A DNA stretch of 57,554 bases, taken from the NCBI GenBank assembly GCA_018649885.1, contig JABIHA010000094.1:62001-119554 (forward strand), in the 5' to 3' direction. Below, in pieces: positions 49,128-57,554 of the stretch; within the stretch, counting starts at the first letter, position 1; every line of letters begins with the position of its first letter. The position numbers were made by a program, and so were the translations under genes. This DNA is from Bacteriovoracaceae bacterium (GTDB taxonomy: Bacteria > Bdellovibrionota > Bacteriovoracia > Bacteriovoracales > Bacteriovoracaceae). The notes under the pieces are model-generated. The model saw nothing but the letters and a program-made list of their open reading frames with translations, made no database searches and had not been told where the DNA came from.

Positions 49128-49413
49128 TCACATACCTCTCGGCATTAGAATATTCATGGGTGTGCGTCTTTCAGCGAACACTGAGATGGGCTTAGGGTTT
49201 TTTCGGATTCTGGGTTTAAAGTTGCTGGGAGTTTTGGTGCTTGATTCACGGTGGACTGGGGAGTCCACCTTCTTCACATACCTCTTAGCTTCAAAAATGC
49301 TCGTTCGCATTTTTGCCGCAAAAGGTGCTTGATTCACGGGAGACTCGGGGTCTCCCTCAGTCACTTACCTCTCTGGGTCAAAACATGCCGCAGGCATGTT
49401 TTGACCCAGGAGG
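49128..49413. repeat. Composite repeat/hairpin array adjoining the tRNA-Ser 3' end
   Basis: TCACWTACCTCT x3 (49128, 49274, 49361) and GGTGCTTGATTCACGG x2 (49236, 49324), separated by hairpins including a perfect 17-bp stem at 49373-49409. Confidence 0.8.
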
Positions 49414-49503
49414 TGGCGGAGAACGGGGGATTCGAACCCCCGAATGAGTCGCCCCATTACACACTTTCCAAGCGCGCGCCTTCAACCACTCGGCCAGTTC
49501 TCC
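49414..49503 (-). tRNA. tRNA-Ser(GGA)
   Basis: GGAGAAC..GTTCTCC-G-CCA acceptor, anticodon loop TT-GGA-AA, long variable arm, GGTTCGAATCC. Confidence 0.96.
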
Positions 49504-49547
49504 GTTGAAAATTAACAACAATTTTTAACATATTGGTTTTTGAGAGT

Positions 49548-50315
49548 CTAGGAGCTCTTTGATAATGCATCGCCTGCATTTGAATTACGAAACTTCCCTC
49601 GGATTTTAGCTCTTTTCCTCACTTTCCAGTAACGCATAAGCCTGAGAAATTTTCTGTGTTCTTTTTCAGAGTCTAAAATAAATTCGACTCCATATGTTAG
49701 ACCTCGCCCCAATGAGTATTGCCTCTTACTCATAAGCCTTACTCTCAGAACGGCCTCTTTACCTAAAAAAGGTAGCTTCAATTGAATTCTCTCACCCACA
49801 TCAAGGTCTTCAAACAAAACTAAGCAGCCAGCCTTTCTTCTTATGTCAGTGAGCCTTCCCACAAGATTTAAATCTTCAACAACTCTAAAAACTTCAACCT
49901 TTAAATCTCCACGATATCTAAAATCATATTCCCACCATCTGATCCGAGGAAAGAAAAAGGGAGAGGACATACTGTGGGCCTCAATTAAAAGTAATATCAA
50001 ACTCAAAAGATAAATCAGACCAACCTGCGGGAATGGATCAGAGAAAAAATAATAGATGCTATTTTTTACTAAATATATGGATATAAAAAATGTGAAAGTC
50101 CAAAAAGTGTAATAGAGGTTTTTTAGGGTCTTAGTAAATAGATTGTAGAAAACTACAAGTAGGGCCAAGTAAGTAAAAAAATCGATGATACCAATTTTTG
50201 AGTAACCACATTCAACAATCAAAACAAATACATTGAGAATGAAATGACCTATGTGAAAATATTCTGCTTTCTCAAAAAGATCTAAGGTATTTAAATTTGA
50301 GATAAAATTCTTCAT
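49548..50315 (-). CDS. Membrane protein with C-terminal PilZ-like domain
   Basis: Four TM segments, PRIRWWE..RYR, G...DI, YGVEF. Confidence 0.65.
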   Translation of the reverse strand: MKNFISNLNTLDLFEKAEYFHIGHFILNVFVLIVECGYSKIGIIDFFTYLALLVVFYNLFTKTLKNLYYTFWTFTFFISIYLVKNSIYYFFSDPFPQVGLIYLLSLILLLIEAHSMSSPFFFPRIRWWEYDFRYRGDLKVEVFRVVEDLNLVGRLTDIRRKAGCLVLFEDLDVGERIQLKLPFLGKEAVLRVRLMSKRQYSLGRGLTYGVEFILDSEKEHRKFLRLMRYWKVRKRAKIRGKFRNSNAGDALSKSS

Positions 50316-50368
50316 GACTATATTTTATAGTTTTCCCCAAATTCTGCTAGATAGGGGGAAAACTACCA

Positions 50369-50854
50369 CTATTTGTAGCCGAGTCGCCTTTGCTTAAAAA
50401 ACATAGATAACATTTTAGAACATTTGTAATGATCAACACCTCCAATGATGGAAAGTTGATGATTAAGTTTAGGATCACCAAAGTGACGATAGCCCAAGCT
50501 GATGGCCCCACCCTTAGGGTCGAAGGCCCCAAAAATCACCCTTCTCACCCTGGCCTGGACTAAGGCCCCCATACACATAGTACAAGGCTCTAGCGTGGTA
50601 TAAATATCACAATCAGTTAGTCTCCAGTTCCCAATTTTTTTACCAGCGGCCCTAAGAGCAATAATTTCAGCATGACCACATGGGTCATAGTTTTTTTCTT
50701 TTAGGTTATGGGAGCTAGCGAGAACTTCTTTTTCTTTAGATATAATAACTGCGCCAATGGGCACTTCGCCTTTTTGAAAAGCTAGGTCGGCTTGCTCAAG
50801 GGCCATTTTCATAAACCATGGATCCCAGGGGAACCCATTAGCACTCAGCATCAT
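50369..50854 (-). CDS. tadA: tRNA adenosine(34) deaminase
   Basis: GEVPIGAV, HAE, TLEPCTMC, DPKGGA, FF..RR. Confidence 0.93.
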   Translation of the reverse strand: MMLSANGFPWDPWFMKMALEQADLAFQKGEVPIGAVIISKEKEVLASSHNLKEKNYDPCGHAEIIALRAAGKKIGNWRLTDCDIYTTLEPCTMCMGALVQARVRRVIFGAFDPKGGAISLGYRHFGDPKLNHQLSIIGGVDHYKCSKMLSMFFKQRRLGYK

Positions 50855-50899
50855 TTGCCTTTATTTTCTGGTCCTATAGAACCAACCTGAGAGATTAAA

Positions 50900-50976
50900 T
50901 GGCACAACCGGTACGATTCGAACGTACGACCTCCTGATTCGTAGTCAGGTGCTCTATCCAGCTAAGCTACGGCTGC
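50900..50976 (-). tRNA. tRNA-Arg(ACG)
   Basis: GCAGCCG..CGGTTGT-G-CCA, anticodon arm CCTGA-CT-ACG-AA-TCAGG, GTTCGAAT. Confidence 0.96.
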
Positions 50977-51092
50977 ACAAAAAAGATCAACACTATGTGT
51001 AGCCAAGCAGGCCCATGAAGTCAAGAAAGTGTATGACAATTACCCAGATTGGGGGTACTACCGGTAGACTATGACAATCAACCCCTCCATAG

Positions 51093-51974
51093 GTGAAAAT
51101 TATGATGCCCAATTTAAATGATCTAAAATATTTTGTTGAAGTCGCCAACTCAAAAAACCTTTCGAGGGCAGCAGAAAGATTAGGAATTTCACAGCCCTCA
51201 CTTTCTCTTGCGATTAAAAGACTAGAACAAATTATTGGAGTTGATATTTTAATCAGAACTAAAAGGGGAGTGTATCTCACCACCTCGGGAAAAGTTCTTT
51301 TGACTAACTCAAAAAGCCTTATTCAGAAATGGGAAGAAATAAGAGACTCAGCGTTTTCTTCTTCTAATGAAATCAAAGGGCGTTTTTCTATTGGATGTCA
51401 CCCATCTGTCGCACTCTATACACTAAAATATTTTGTCCCAGAAATTGTCGAAAAATACCAGGAGTTAGAACTATGTTTAAAGCACGATCTTTCTAGAAAA
51501 ATTTCAGAAGAAGTTATTAGCTTAAACTTAGACTTAGGGATTGTGGTAAACCCAGTTAGACACCCAGACCTTATCATTAGTAAACTATGTGAAGACCAGG
51601 TCACACTTTGGACAAGTGGAGGCAAGGCCAAATGTCTTGATCATAAATCTGGAAGTGCTGTTTTAATTTATGACCCCGAGCTCGTTCAGTCTCAGTCACT
51701 TGTTAAAAAACTAAAAAGAAAGGGAATCAGCTTTTCTCGAACGATAACCTCAAGTAATCTTGAGGTTATCACATCATTAACCGCCCAAGGTGCTGGAATT
51801 GGTATCATCCCAACAAGAGTTGCAACAAATCCACATGAAGGCGGTGTAAAATTAAAGCAACTACCAGGGGCGCCAAGCTATAAAGATGAAATTTCTGTAA
51901 TTTATAGGGTGGAAAACAAAAATACTGCTGGGATCAGGTTTTTATCAGATTCAATAAAAGACTTTTTTAAATAA
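51093..51974 (+). CDS. LysR family transcriptional regulator
   Basis: LKYF, SRAAERLGISQPSLS.AIKRLE, LDLGI. Confidence 0.92.
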   Translation: MKIMMPNLNDLKYFVEVANSKNLSRAAERLGISQPSLSLAIKRLEQIIGVDILIRTKRGVYLTTSGKVLLTNSKSLIQKWEEIRDSAFSSSNEIKGRFSIGCHPSVALYTLKYFVPEIVEKYQELELCLKHDLSRKISEEVISLNLDLGIVVNPVRHPDLIISKLCEDQVTLWTSGGKAKCLDHKSGSAVLIYDPELVQSQSLVKKLKRKGISFSRTITSSNLEVITSLTAQGAGIGIIPTRVATNPHEGGVKLKQLPGAPSYKDEISVIYRVENKNTAGIRFLSDSIKDFFK

Positions 51975-52057
51975 GAGGAACCACTTCCTAACTTGTTTTA
52001 AACCAATCTAAATATTATAATCCTCCCATTACTCATTCTATGCAAGAAGGCCATGTT

Positions 52058-52729
52058 ATGAACGACCAAGTAAAAAGAGAGCCCCGTATTGTCTACGCTC
52101 CACTCAACAGAGTCTTTTTAAATATTAAAGGAAGTCTAAAAAAAATTGTAAATATAAGCACAAGTGGTCTCGCCCTAAAAGTCTCAGAATTTGAAGAAAC
52201 ATTTAAACCTGGGGATCAAATAATTGGTGAAATTTGTTTTGATGGAGGAGAAAATCTAAGACTTGACCTTGAAGTAGTCCACACAGCAAATGAAACAATA
52301 GGGCTCAAAGTCAATAATATGCAACAATCATTTTTCATTGTTGTTTCAAAATATTTTTTCAGAGAAATAAGCGCACAAAAAATGAAGCCTGTTCGCTTCA
52401 CTAATACCAAGCAAGGCCCCTCCGGAGAAACCCATTAGCTTGAAGGCGGAGAAAACTGCGACCTTCTCTATGTCGTAAAAAATGAAAAGGTGATTCGATT
52501 TGAATTGCGATTTTTTGGAAATATCATCCAAGGAGGAAAAGATATTAGCCTTATTATAGCAAACCTAAATGACCCAGATCGCTTTAAACATTATGGTGGC
52601 TCAACTATTCTTGAAGATGGTGTCGAAGTAGATGACCGTGAGTTTCAAAATAACCTAAGGTTATTTATTAATAATATTAATGCTCTCTCAGAAGATGTAA
52701 AAGAAATGATTATTGAGTTATTCCCCTAA
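52058..52729 (+). pseudogene. PilZ-domain protein interrupted by an in-frame TAG at 52436-52438
   Basis: KREPR and NISTSG motifs; ORFs 52040..52438 and 52490..52729 share a frame and the intervening sequence is open (H*LEGGENCDLLYVVKNEK). Confidence 0.7.
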
Positions 52730-53844
52730 GAGCTCACTTCGCTTTGAGTTTTTGGGATCGTCAGAATAAATTTTGTATTTGAGCAATCATCATCAATTTC
52801 TAAATCACCACCATGGTTTTCTGCAATTTTTTTCGAAATACTTAACCCAAGCCCTGTTCCCCTTCCCGGTGCCTTTGTAGTAAAAAATGGATTCAATATT
52901 TTTTCCCGACAGGAATCACTAATACCCTTACCACTATCAATGACAGAAATATTAACAAGCTCTCCCCCATCTTCAATAATTACCTTGACCCATTTTTCAT
53001 CTAAACCCTCAAGGGCATCACAGGCATTATTGAATAAGTTCAGCAGTATTTGCGAAATAGATATTCCTCGACAATCAAACTTTAATTCAGGAGACCCTCC
53101 GACAGTGGAGAATTCTATCCCCTGACAGAAAAATCTACTCTCACAAAGAAGAAGGGAATCTGATACCACGTCTTTTACAACCATTGTTTCAAATGGATCA
53201 TTAGATTCATATCTAGAAAAATGCTTAAAACTATCAATAATTTTATTTGCCCTATCATAGGCCTTGATGATTTTTTCTGTACAAGACCTAACTTCACTTT
53301 CATAAGATTCTGATTTGCCATCGAGTGACTCTATCTTTTGGGCAAGTGAAAATATAATACCAAGGGGATTCGTCACCTCGTGAACCATTGAAGCCGAGAC
53401 CTCCCCGATTGATGCAAGTTTGCCTTGGAAAATTATTTGATCTTGAGCACTCTCTAAACTTTCTTCCAATTCTATTTTTAAAATTGCCTTTTCAACTCGA
53501 GCAAGTATGACATCATGATCAAAGGGTTTTTCTATAAAATCAAATGCTCCAAGTCTTAAGGACTCAACAGCAGTCCTCTTATTCCCATGACCCGTAATAA
53601 AAATCACTGGTATTTTGGAAGATCTTTCCTGTATCGAATTAATCAACCAAAACCCATCCTTACCAGGCATCTTTATATCTGAAATGATAACATCTGGGTG
53701 AAAATCCTGAATTGCCATCAACGCATCATCTGCCGAATGAGCACCCATTGTTTCATATACTGGACTCAGAGTGATCTGAAGTAGTTTACAAATCGTAACC
53801 TCATCATCAACAATTAAAATCCTTCGCTTTCTATTTTCATTCAT
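52726..53844 (-). CDS. Hybrid response regulator / histidine kinase (REC-HisKA-HATPase)
   Basis: ILIVDDE, DIKMP, KP, HEVTNPL, NLFNNACDA, DSGKGI, FFTTK, GTGLGL. Confidence 0.92.
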   Translation of the reverse strand: MNENRKRRILIVDDEVTICKLLQITLSPVYETMGAHSADDALMAIQDFHPDVIISDIKMPGKDGFWLINSIQERSSKIPVIFITGHGNKRTAVESLRLGAFDFIEKPFDHDVILARVEKAILKIELEESLESAQDQIIFQGKLASIGEVSASMVHEVTNPLGIIFSLAQKIESLDGKSESYESEVRSCTEKIIKAYDRANKIIDSFKHFSRYESNDPFETMVVKDVVSDSLLLCESRFFCQGIEFSTVGGSPELKFDCRGISISQILLNLFNNACDALEGLDEKWVKVIIEDGGELVNISVIDSGKGISDSCREKILNPFFTTKAPGRGTGLGLSISKKIAENHGGDLEIDDDCSNTKFILTIPKTQSEVSS

Positions 53845-55772
53845 TAGGATGCTCCCATTTCATTGGAATTCGGTAAATCATCATCTACAAATAAGGCTAG
53901 CTTTATAGTAAAGGTTGAACCACTCTCATCAGACGAGCTACAAGATATCTCCCCATTGTGCTCTACTACAATTCCATGGGATATCGATAGACCTAAGCCT
54001 GTCCCCTCTCCCACGTCTTTCGTTGTAAAAAAAGGATCAAATATTTTATTGGTTGACTCATCATCAAGGCCACAACCATTATCACTAAATTTAATAACAG
54101 CATATCTACCAACAACTTCAGTGCTTACCTTAAGAATACCGCTATTAGTATTTTCACTGCTCTTAATTGCATCTCGTGCATTAATTATTAGATTAACAAA
54201 AACCTGCTCGAGCCTTATGCCATCTCCACTTACAACAATGTCTTCACTCGCAAGCTCCTTTGTCACTTCAATTCCACTTAATCTCATTTGAGCATCTAGC
54301 AAAATAAATGACTTTTCCACTATTTCATTAATATTTACAGGCGAAAATTCTAGGTCGGTCTGCCTAGAAAAATCTCTCATATGATTAATTATATTAGACA
54401 TTCTTTTGACACTATCATTGATATCAATAAAATATTCCGAAATGTCCTTATGTATTTCTGGATGATTAAAACCAAGAGTTTTATCAATATGAGCACTAAA
54501 ACCCTGAATAATAGTCAGAGGGTTATTAAGCTCATGGGCCATACCCGCACTCAGCACTCCAAGAGAAGCAAGCTTTTCAGATTGAACCAATTGAGCATGT
54601 TTTTCAATGTATTTTTTTTCAATTAATTCTTTCTCAACAAGTAATTTTTTACTACTTTGATGCTGAACATTCGTTAGTAAAACAATTAATATGCATGACA
54701 ATATAGTCAGCATAAAAATGATGTTCTTATTACTATTTAAATTTTCAAATGCCTCATCTTTGTCAATTTCAGTTGTTATACCTATGGAAAAATGCTCATC
54801 CCATATCCAAGCGCCAACGACAGGTACCCCCCTATAATCGCGGTATCCTTTTAAATTCTTATTAATTTTGTGCGATGAACCCTTTCCATTTATTGAATCA
54901 TGCGCCATCACGGTTAGTGGTAATTCTTCATTTTTATTATACAAAATACTACCAAGTGTAAGATTCACACCAGGGTCGGATACCTTAATTGCAAGAGTTG
55001 ACTTTTGCCCCTTCTCCAATAGGTTTGCCTTTTTCAAGTGATCGTTGAACCTACTTTCACTAACCAAAAACCCTTTCCCGTTAAAAGCATAGGTCTCACC
55101 ACTTTTGCCTATCCTCCCCCTTTGCAAGATCTTTGTGAAATCCAGCAGAGGATCAATTCTAAAAATAAAAGCAGACTCAACTCCACCATTTGAATCAAAT
55201 ATTGGAGCCCCCACAAACATTGTAGGGGAACTTCCCCCCGTAGTCGTTCCTAGTTCCACATCTGATTTCAGGGGAGCACTCGTTGCTGTTTTTCCGGACC
55301 AAATATCCTTCCAAAATAATTTCACTCCTGCCAAAAGGTTTTTTTTGCCAATGTTGCTATCCCTTAAAGAGCTCAGATTAATCATTTCTTTTGAGACAAT
55401 AAAGTAGCCCTTAAAGTCATTTACATTAATGACCTTTTGCAAACTCTTTCTCAACTCTAAATGAATAGGCGAACTTTTAAGATCTTTTGATGTCTTCGAA
55501 TAATTTAAAAGTTTCCTGCTCGAATTTTTTATTTCAGGTGAGTCGGCCCAGACAATAGTAACAGCCGAAACCCTACTCCTCCAAGTAATGAGCGCTTGGT
55601 GAGTTGTTTCGAGGACAGTTTGTAAGGCATTACCCACATTTTCCTCTCCCCTCTCCTGCATTCGACTTATAAGAATTGAGTCAATAAAGAGCAGTAGAAA
55701 AATTGAAGCAACCGCCAGGGCAATCGCCCCACCACCTCGCAATTGCAAAAATCCATTTTTCACTAATTTCAA
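53844..55772 (-). CDS. Membrane sensor histidine kinase (Cache-like periplasmic domain)
   Basis: Two TM helices, GETY, YRDYRGVPV, AHELNNPL, NARDA, DNGCG, GTGLGL. Confidence 0.9.
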   Translation of the reverse strand: MKLVKNGFLQLRGGGAIALAVASIFLLLFIDSILISRMQERGEENVGNALQTVLETTHQALITWRSRVSAVTIVWADSPEIKNSSRKLLNYSKTSKDLKSSPIHLELRKSLQKVINVNDFKGYFIVSKEMINLSSLRDSNIGKKNLLAGVKLFWKDIWSGKTATSAPLKSDVELGTTTGGSSPTMFVGAPIFDSNGGVESAFIFRIDPLLDFTKILQRGRIGKSGETYAFNGKGFLVSESRFNDHLKKANLLEKGQKSTLAIKVSDPGVNLTLGSILYNKNEELPLTVMAHDSINGKGSSHKINKNLKGYRDYRGVPVVGAWIWDEHFSIGITTEIDKDEAFENLNSNKNIIFMLTILSCILIVLLTNVQHQSSKKLLVEKELIEKKYIEKHAQLVQSEKLASLGVLSAGMAHELNNPLTIIQGFSAHIDKTLGFNHPEIHKDISEYFIDINDSVKRMSNIINHMRDFSRQTDLEFSPVNINEIVEKSFILLDAQMRLSGIEVTKELASEDIVVSGDGIRLEQVFVNLIINARDAIKSSENTNSGILKVSTEVVGRYAVIKFSDNGCGLDDESTNKIFDPFFTTKDVGEGTGLGLSISHGIVVEHNGEISCSSSDESGSTFTIKLALFVDDDLPNSNEMGAS

Positions 55773-56066
55773 AACTCTTCCCCACCCTGATAAGAATTCA
55801 AACTATTATAAACCGTCTTCCTTGAGACCCATAGGTTATATTTAAGAATCCTGGTCACAAAAAGCCATGATACCATTGCAGTCTACTACTCCAACTTTAA
55901 GCAATAAATACGAGAGGATAGTGGTTAATCTTAGAAAGGAAAAACCCTAACCTACAAAACCAAAGCACCGCCTAACACCCTCCGTCATATAACGTCAGCT
56001 TGCCAAAAAATGAACTTGTTAATTTTTCGGTAGCACACACGGTGCTTTTTATATTATCTAGTATTT

Positions 56067-57113
56067 ATGAATTTAACTTTCGAGCAAAAATACAATGCTA
56101 TAGGAAAAAAAGAATCTCTTTATGAAGGGATTTTTGTAACTGCCGTCAAGTCGACAAAAATATTTTGCAGACCCTCTTGCAGAGCAAGAAAACCATTAGC
56201 TAAAAATGTTACATTTTACAAAAATGCTGAGGAGGCCCTAAGGTATGGCTACCGACCATGTAAAATATGTAAACCAATGGAAAATGAGAGTGAAACTCCT
56301 GGATACATTAAAGAGTTAATAAAAGAACTTCATCGTAATCCTTACCAGAAAATTAAAGATTGGAATTTAAAAAAGAGAAACCTGGAACCAAGTCATGTGA
56401 GACGGTGGTTTAAAAAACACCACAACATGACGTTTCATGCTTATCAAAGATTAATTCGAATCAACTCCGCCTACACTAAAATTCAAGAAGGTGATTCCAT
56501 CACACTTACGGCCTTTGACAGCGGTTACGAATCACTTAGCGGATTTAATGATGGATACAAAAATATATTTGGAAGTTCTCCCCAAAAGAACCCTGGCAAA
56601 ACAATTATATATATTGACAGGTTTTCCACAAAACTAGGCGCAATGTACGCTTGCTCAACAGACAAGGGAATATGCCTACTTGAGTTTACCGACAGAAAAA
56701 TGCTAGAAACTGAATTCAAAAATATTTGCTCGCGCTTTGATGCCGTCATCATTCCCGGCACAAACAAACACATAAAATTAGTCAAAAAAGAACTCAAACA
56801 CTACCTAGAGGGCAAATTAAAAAAATTTACAGTCCCACTCGATACTGCTGGCACAGATTTCCAAAAAAGCGTCTGGAAAATACTAAAATCCATCCCCTAC
56901 GGAAAAACCTGTTCGTACCTAGAGCAAGCAAAAAAAATGAACAACCCAAAAGCCGTAAGAGCAGTAGCAAACGCCAACGGCATGAACTCTATAGCAATCA
57001 TCATCCCCTGCCACCGAGTCATAGGAAGCGACGGAAGCCTAACCGGCTACGGAGGAGGACTCCCCCGCAAAAAATGGCTCCTCGAACTCGAACAATCCCA
57101 AAAAAATAAATAA
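56067..57113 (+). CDS. ada: Bifunctional transcriptional activator / O6-methylguanine-DNA methyltransferase
   Basis: CRPSC and PCKIC zinc site, AraC-type HTH, active site PCHRV. Confidence 0.93.
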   Translation: MNLTFEQKYNAIGKKESLYEGIFVTAVKSTKIFCRPSCRARKPLAKNVTFYKNAEEALRYGYRPCKICKPMENESETPGYIKELIKELHRNPYQKIKDWNLKKRNLEPSHVRRWFKKHHNMTFHAYQRLIRINSAYTKIQEGDSITLTAFDSGYESLSGFNDGYKNIFGSSPQKNPGKTIIYIDRFSTKLGAMYACSTDKGICLLEFTDRKMLETEFKNICSRFDAVIIPGTNKHIKLVKKELKHYLEGKLKKFTVPLDTAGTDFQKSVWKILKSIPYGKTCSYLEQAKKMNNPKAVRAVANANGMNSIAIIIPCHRVIGSDGSLTGYGGGLPRKKWLLELEQSQKNK

Positions 57114-57138
57114 AAAAACACTTTCAGCAGAGAGCTAT

Positions 57139-57283
57139 GAAGTAGCGGAGACCCATGTATGCCGGAGGCATACCATTAAACAGCAGGCGGCTCCTTTGAA
57201 GGAACGCAATCAACGGTGCAAATTAAATGATTTTCTAAATATTAGTGAGTTAAAGAAGTGGCGGAGACGCCGACCCTTGAACC
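57139..57283. repeat. Direct repeat GAAGTRGCGGAGAC x2 with degenerate tRNA-3'-end-like fragment and GNA-loop hairpin
   Basis: Copies at 57139-57152 and 57255-57268; hairpin GTATGCC-GGA-GGCATAC at 57157-57173. Confidence 0.55.
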
Positions 57284-57554
57284 TGTGCAGCTTAACTTAA
57301 GATAAGGTATGCATAAAGTCATAGCTATTTAATACGCTACCCATTATACAAGATTGAGAACTATTATGGTTCATGGAATATGAAAGTATTAAATTAAGAA
57401 AGAGCTTCTAAAATGGAAGTAACACGAGTCGCGTTTACAACACCTGACTAAAATTGCCTTTTAATTTTGAGTCATACGTCTTCAGTTAAAATTGTAATTA
57501 CTACAGAACAATTTTAACAAAGGAAAAACGTATGACTCATCAACAGTATCTCAT

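Follow-up and report, generated by a model that had tools for sequence, protein, structure and literature searches.

Why does the 3' end of an intact DNA-repair gene consist almost entirely of codons ending in A or C? The gene, ada, lies within a 57,554-nucleotide stretch of DNA (hereafter, the window) that forms the end of contig C57 in the genome of a Bacteriovoracaceae bacterium (5.45 Mb, 92% complete) that is present in marine metagenomes. Three features define the problem.

56067 to 57113, + strand: ada, single copy and intact, encoding a 348-aa Ada fusion protein (Pfam matches and alignment with 11 homologues).
56627 to 57120, + strand: tract rich in A and C at synonymous sites (G/T-rich on the - strand), ~96% in 56937-57110, with a sharp end at ~57120.
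57114 to 57143, - strand: weak, imperfect hairpin plus T-run, terminator-like, at the tract edge (RNA fold -6.4 kcal/mol).

The protein contains Ada_Zn_binding, HTH_18, Methyltransf_1N and DNA_binding_1 domains (Pfam), as in the bifunctional regulator and O6-methylguanine methyltransferase. Our recount of the last 58 sense codons (56937-57110) reproduced the original prediction exactly, with 28 ending in C, 25 in A, three in G (ATG, ATG and TGG) and two in T (TCT and AAT); its figure of 10 T-ending codons among the first 30 also agreed, and translation of the open reading frame confirmed that the protein is kept, with the PCHRV motif intact. Using the genome's own codon-family backgrounds to set the expected A/C share in a scan of 1.52 million synonymous sites, we found that the final 180 nt of ada have A or C at 54 of their 56 synonymous sites, against 28.4 expected (P = 6.8e-15), and the segment 56627-57104 (478 bp) scored 44.3, ranking sixth in the genome. 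The excess climbs toward the stop codon, with a decay length of ~320 nt in an exponential fit and a peak shift of roughly 60-fold; a gradient (AIC 349.7) is weakly preferred over a step (352.7), the two being 3 AIC units apart, and a constant excess scored 388.9. Conservation of the Ada protein is equal inside and outside the tract, the changes being confined to silent sites. The original prediction held that the bias strengthens toward a hairpin and repeat beyond the gene. The climb to the stop codon bears this out, but it halts at ~57120, and the non-coding DNA at 57121-57255, which includes the hairpin, is unskewed (70 of 135 positions A/C, 52%). The terminator-like structure at the tract edge was not called by a promoter/terminator scan that performed at chance level.

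A contig break caused by a repeat lies 440 nt away, which could point to an assembly or sequencing artefact.

57414 to 57554, + strand: terminal part of an insertion element present in several copies; these 140 nt recur at the ends of C98, C107, C114 and C139, and the element body is missing from the assembly.

We consider the chance of such an artefact negligible. Contig pieces from four of four sequencing runs overlap parts of the tract with zero differing letters (at a low depth of 2-5), an outcome that speaks for the sequence in the read-based check that had been proposed, and an artefact would not be expected to spare the encoded protein. A metagenome contig (L037) matches this DNA without a difference along 4167 nt and is possibly its source. 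The DNA between the gene and the insertion element (57114-57413) gave 12 short matches, with E values of 4e-4 or worse, in 300 genomes of the phylum.

The 3' part of ada could instead have been imported from a donor that favors A/C-ending codons. Consistent with import, ada was probably acquired horizontally, since a full-length match was found in only 1 of 24 family genomes and the best homologue, at 73%, comes from DNA of 56% GC; the step model is, moreover, just 3 AIC units worse than the gradient. Among 82 ada loci compared, however, one is the same sequence and the other 81 have A/C shares of 0.27-0.63 in the last 60 codons versus 0.96 here, such that none conserves the tract and none resembles the postulated donor. 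The same homologue is nearest to both halves of the gene (73% and 75%), similar tracts occur in gshB, pepN, fpg and an amidase gene, and in a paralogous family the skew is derived (see below). The search for ada homologues returned none with an identity between 73% and 100%, and silent sites are saturated at 73%. A blastn search of the 92% complete genome with ada returned only short chance matches, none longer than 34 nt among the matches listed. Import of the 3' part is, in our judgment, improbable.

The ada tract is one of many in this genome. The scan returned 18 segments scoring at least 19, of which 15 score at least 24, versus a maximum of 13.2 in three simulated genomes (gene calls were the longest open reading frames of at least 100 aa, shorter genes being counted as intergenic). 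Hosts or neighbors of tracts include four-helix-bundle genes (4 of 6 PF05635 matches), HNH genes, fpg, gshB, pepN, a formate/nitrite transporter gene and the amidase gene, with the following two as instructive cases.

L022:1242 to 2051 (contig C133): fpg/mutM, a second DNA-repair gene with a tract, the second strongest in the genome; the coding strand is G/T-rich from the 5' end.
C134:1551 to 1920 and 2589 to 2718: a gene of 1408 codons with two tracts in its interior, away from either gene end.

The skew is bound to the DNA strand: some tracts are A/C-rich and others G/T-rich on the coding strand, and two related four-helix-bundle genes have opposite skews. Ordinary codon bias, which the original prediction had dismissed, indeed provides no explanation, as similar tracts lie on coding and template strands alike. 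Selection acting on codon usage, on the structure of the mRNA or on an antisense element that overlaps the gene would be consistent with the many tracts that build up toward gene 3' ends. The sign at those ends nevertheless differs among genes (A/C in ada and the amidase gene, G/T in gshB, pepN and focA), tracts run across genes of both orientations and intergenic DNA, no homologue conserves the ada tract, and a search of 55700-57554 against Rfam returned no family at gathering score; we regard selection of this kind as highly improbable.

Two of the host families have features of their own. The PF05635 genes on C5, C8 and C20 have in common an upstream element of 55-60 nt with a GCGAAGC core, and all three have a tract, one with the opposite coding-strand polarity. 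The HNH family has 33 matches in the genome, including 17 near-full copies at 75-81% DNA identity with shared flanking repeats; a second HNH subfamily of three copies is G/T-skewed throughout.

The HNH paralogues made it possible to assign a direction to the changes. With the majority of 16 paralogues as the reference, the 3' tract of the copy on C135 contains 39 changes toward A/C and 11 away, the former comprising 20 T>C, nine G>A and 10 transversions, whereas the other 16 paralogues pooled gave 406 toward and 405 away (P = 1e-4 for the contrast); this polarization is by majority consensus, a strict count of private substitutions in the 17 paralogues being uninformative. Over 17 tracts, the shift on the G/T-rich strand is 2.14 +/- 0.07 logit for A>G and 1.69 +/- 0.11 logit for C>T, and the pyrimidine share at four-fold sites is near background (0.61 and 0.53 versus 0.57). 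C72, a low-complexity protein repeat, was excluded from the spectrum, edge-geometry and att-remnant analyses, and C72 and C134 from the four-fold count. The C135 counts, together with the equal shifts of A>G and C>T, indicate that the process is derived and transition-led and treats both transitions alike. No clear neighbor-base motif of the deaminase type was present in the 17 tracts, context effects being mild. Since the A>G shift is as large as the C>T shift and no single neighbor motif stands out, mispairing fits better than a deaminase; the genome encodes four genes of the dCMP-deaminase family. A diversity-generating retroelement was considered and rejected: there is no second copy of the region, the sole reverse transcriptase is on another contig without a tract, and A and C are both shifted.

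The tracts on coding and template strands, the opposite skews of paralogues and the 39 versus 11 changes in C135 substantiate the predicted local, strand-asymmetric process of T>C and G>A. We consider it very likely that the ada tract arose in place through a local excess of both transitions, fixed to one strand, that has nearly saturated the silent sites under selection that preserved the protein. The transitions would be A>G and C>T on the - strand, equivalent to T>C and G>A on its complement, the + strand.

The process is concentrated in the present lineage, as no tract scoring at least 19 was found in 1.92 Mb from 23 family genomes, although the rate in this genome predicts 6.3 (the relatives being non-independent). 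The four-helix-bundle genes were rejected as a general cause, 4 of 6 having a tract here and 0 of 28 loci in relatives. Family searches found MutS, MutL, UDG and DinB present as in relatives, providing no sign of a lost repair gene, and endonuclease V was found in 0 of 21 family genomes, such that its absence is not special to this lineage. Of 22 tracts, 18 agree in polarity with the local replication skew, a count in which weak tracts tend to agree by construction; of the 13 strongest, only 10 do (P = 0.09).

What, then, lies at the point where the ada tract stops? One candidate is the hairpin to which the original prediction had drawn attention.

57157 to 57173, + strand: hairpin with a 7-bp stem and a cGGAg triloop, single copy in the genome.

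Tracts do co-locate with hairpins of this type, as had been proposed: a tract lies within 500 bp of 3 of 8 intergenic cGNAg hairpins (stem at least 6) versus none of the 780 hairpins of other types (P = 7e-7, or 7e-5 if ada is left out), and 7 of 139 GC-GNA-GC cores (5 loci; 132 without) have a tract versus a background of 0.8%, although three of the five loci belong to one element family. Given also that the genome encodes three Y1 transposases, the hairpin could be a nicking site of the REP/Y1-transposase type at which repair synthesis recodes the flank. Tract polarity relative to the GNA strand varies between cases, however, a perfect cGNAg hairpin within 400 bp is absent at 14 of 18 strong tracts, and the 135 nt around the ada hairpin are unskewed. 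A REP/RAYT-type element would be multicopy, and this hairpin is not. The identical 17-mer elsewhere, in other genomes, has an adjacent tract in 0 of 39 places (two have a skewed window 650-1000 nt away), and the three Y1 transposase genes are on other contigs, none with a tract. A process centered on the hairpin is, therefore, upheld as far as the enrichment of cGNAg hairpins beside tracts goes and is not supported by these other observations, and we consider nicking at the hairpin unlikely. The same 17-mer hairpin also occurs within a conserved repeat of uncultured Pirellulales genomes (L191, L192, L214, L215 and L221). Elsewhere in the window, a copy of a MITE-like repeat behind tRNA-Ser(GGA), at 49170-49413, contains a cGCAg hairpin with a 17-bp stem and has no tract; members of this family often lie behind tRNA genes and contain motifs resembling tRNA ends, and among the copies returned by blast only that on C63 has a strong tract.

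The other candidate emerged from the supposed repeat near the hairpin, which turned out to be an att-like copy of the 3' end of a tRNA gene.

57256 to 57283, - strand: attR-like; duplicates the 3' end of tRNA-Ser(GCT), with an exact stretch of 18 nt and a worn T-arm part.
57139 to 57152, - strand: degenerate second copy of the tRNA-Ser(GCT) 3' end, 13 of 14 nt in common with 57255-57268; either an older att scar or a tRNA-linked repeat.
49414 to 50976, - strand: tRNA-Arg(ACG), a tadA-type deaminase gene, a PilZ gene and tRNA-Ser(GGA), the rest of a conserved tRNA cluster.
50977 to 56066: accessory block of LysR, PilZ, response regulator-kinase and Cache kinase genes, without a strong tract.

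Positions 57256-57273 match C64:65685-65702 exactly, namely 15 nt of the tRNA-Ser(GCT) end plus 3 nt of flank. On C64 the order is serS, tRNA-Ser(TGA) and tRNA-Ser(GCT), followed by an Xre HTH and IrrE/ImmA protease pair and, at the contig end, a tyrosine-integrase-like gene. In relatives, Ser(TGA)-Ser(GCT) precede tRNA-Arg(ACG) and tadA at 13 of 20 loci, and here tRNA-Arg(ACG)/tadA lie 6.3 kb to the left of the att scar, with the accessory block and ada situated between the Ser(GCT) att and tRNA-Arg(ACG). The exact 3'-end copy has the same orientation as the tRNA gene and would lie on the far side of an island, and the order and strand skew match the cluster in relatives. From this arrangement we infer that C64 runs through the island into reversed C57, which would make 57256-57283 the outer att scar and ada the first gene outside; C64 and C57 are separate contigs, and the join rests on synteny and matching skew rather than on the assembly; the four sequencing runs yielded no report of a joint between them. 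In the empty-site state, the 3' end of ada would lie ~145 nt downstream of tRNA-Ser(GCT), in antisense, with the tRNA-sense strand being the G/T-rich one. Within the window, a PilZ-domain frame (52040-52729) contains an in-frame TAG at 52436-52438 and is open from there to 52729, with the look of a broken gene.

Skewed flanks recur at other att-like copies. The genome contains 14 intergenic copies of tRNA or tmRNA 3' ends, 12 of them scorable, and 3 of the 12 have z of -6 or below downstream, against a base rate of 0.19% (P = 1.5e-6, or 2e-4 with ada left out and 0.02 with both ada and C74 left out). The three are ada, a tmRNA att on C5 and a weaker case on C74, and all are G/T-rich on the tRNA-sense strand.

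C121:727 to 10405: tmRNA plus an integrase/resolvase island with two att copies, and a further att copy at C5:47016; the arrangement is that of tandem elements at tmRNA.
C70:16554: tRNA-Lys(CTT) with an adjoining integrase-like gene; a 41-nt att copy lies at C74:2079-2119, and behind it is a foreign gene with moderate skew.

Flank homology confirms that the copy on C5 is a true att, since 79 nt of its flank have 90% identity with one of the att copies on the contig of the tmRNA, and the adjoining tract, the strongest in the genome, is placed beside the tmRNA attR in the same way as the ada tract beside its scar. On C74, the skew is broad and moderate and lies in a foreign gene. Nine of the 12 att-like copies have no tract, and a convincing att is found at only 2 of the 15 strongest tracts. 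Further att remnants at the edges of C20 and C143 (scores 12 and 14) were discounted because tRNA ends and those flanks are both C/A-rich. Literature searches, with most subscription papers outside their coverage, found no description of a recoded flank outside attR. An att site beside a one-strand tract is a new and testable landmark.

This geometry also raises the possibility that read-through transcription or R-loops from the tRNA-Ser operon at the empty site expose the - strand to deamination (C>T and A>G), the gradient being the fall-off of read-through. It suits ada, behind tRNA-Ser(GCT) with its G/T-rich tRNA-sense strand, as well as the tmRNA att on C5, and the fpg tract, which begins at the 5' end of the gene on the coding strand, fits as well. 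Yet none of the genome's own tRNA and tmRNA genes (36 listed, 32 scored) has z below -2.7 downstream, and tRNA-cluster loci of relatives have a tract in 0 of 20 cases, though several have genes directly behind Ser(GCT). Cytosine deamination is much faster than adenine deamination, and an A>G shift as strong as that of C>T is not what deamination would be expected to produce. We consider read-through fairly unlikely.

Repeated resynthesis of the - strand (or heteroduplex invasion) from a fixed junction at ~57120, with surviving G:T mispairs, is the account that fits best, and we assign it a slightly less than even chance. The - strand would be replaced again and again, from ~57120 to a few hundred bases into ada, and mispairs of G opposite T and of T opposite G that survive would leave the new strand richer in G and T. 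At ada, the junction would be the outer att scar left by integration at tRNA-Ser(GCT); at other tracts the role might fall to the tmRNA attR, to cassettes of four-helix-bundle or HNH genes, to local tandem repeats or to gene ends. We take hairpins and att scars alike as marks of DNA junctions where elements arrived and left. Such strand replacement would account for a shift that is equal for both transitions, for an edge that is sharp and one-sided, for the decay and for the association with mobile DNA; the enzymatic step, and a role of the att site as cause rather than marker of the tract, are presumed. The tracts are strand-bound, derived (a direction established in the C135 HNH copy and not in ada), transition-led and one-sided, and that in ada adjoins an att-like site. 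Because on the G/T-rich strand some tracts lie before and some after their edge, no single geometry fits all of them. More speculatively, the lineage may possess its own one-strand transition mutator, or a conversion bias favoring G:T, that sets out from junctions, such as outer att sites or cassettes with a cGNAg hairpin, and recodes a few hundred bases of the adjoining gene, a reading that we hold possible but doubtful.

Several known systems resemble these tracts in part. The heavy strand of mitochondrial DNA shows a gradient of C>T and A>G that leaves one strand enriched in G/T, but here the gradient extends over hundreds of bases of a bacterial chromosome with no known long single-stranded state. 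Integrative elements that target tRNA and tmRNA genes duplicate attR at the tRNA 3' end, and the locus described here has the corresponding duplicated tRNA 3' end, a tyrosine-integrase-like gene and an Xre/ImmA pair beside the tRNA gene. Replication errors left uncorrected in mismatch-repair-defective E. coli show the same two biases, both A:T>G:C and G:C>A:T changes favoring A and C on one strand, twofold and genome-wide (Foster et al., 10.1101/346874). One strand gains G and T in that case as well; the bias here, far above twofold, reaches up to ~60-fold, is local, occurs with MutS and MutL present and is not always directed by replication.

The closest counterpart is GRINS, and our literature searches, with the same limited coverage of subscription papers, found no other account of such tracts. 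In the 2021 description (PMC8256042), GRINS have strong GC and TA skews of the same sign that peak at third codon positions, can take either sign on a strand and leave the protein intact. They are often near transposases, integrases and endonucleases; the mechanism is left unexplained there, with C>T and A>G via mispairing proposed, and they are defined as duplicated and longer than 500 bp, although single-copy skewed regions are also mentioned (PMC8256042). The ada tract likewise has same-sign skews (GC -0.12 to -0.24 and TA -0.27 to -0.47 in six windows starting at 56667-56967, values within the GRINS range), strongest at third positions, and an intact protein. At 478 bp it falls just short of the GRINS length, however, and it has no counterpart at more than 80% DNA identity among the matches listed for the genome: it is single-copy, without a gene-conversion partner (three HNH copies of one subfamily do have a common skew), runs in a one-sided gradient to a fixed point and abuts an att scar. 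The ada tract thus resembles GRINS and is not a member. Local silent-site skew of this kind may mislead analyses of codon bias, selection and binning. The organism is uncultured, which limits direct tests, but GRINS-type skews lack a published mechanism, and where genes are duplicated, skew and copying are inseparable, whereas the single-copy, one-sided ada tract, with its measurable decay and definable site, provides a start point and a strand for such tests. If a lineage-specific process starting at junctions were indeed responsible, single-copy tracts would represent the seed from which GRINS develop, their starting point fixed and their polarity known, and activating a single integrase at a single att site would be a way to test what causes the GRINS skew.
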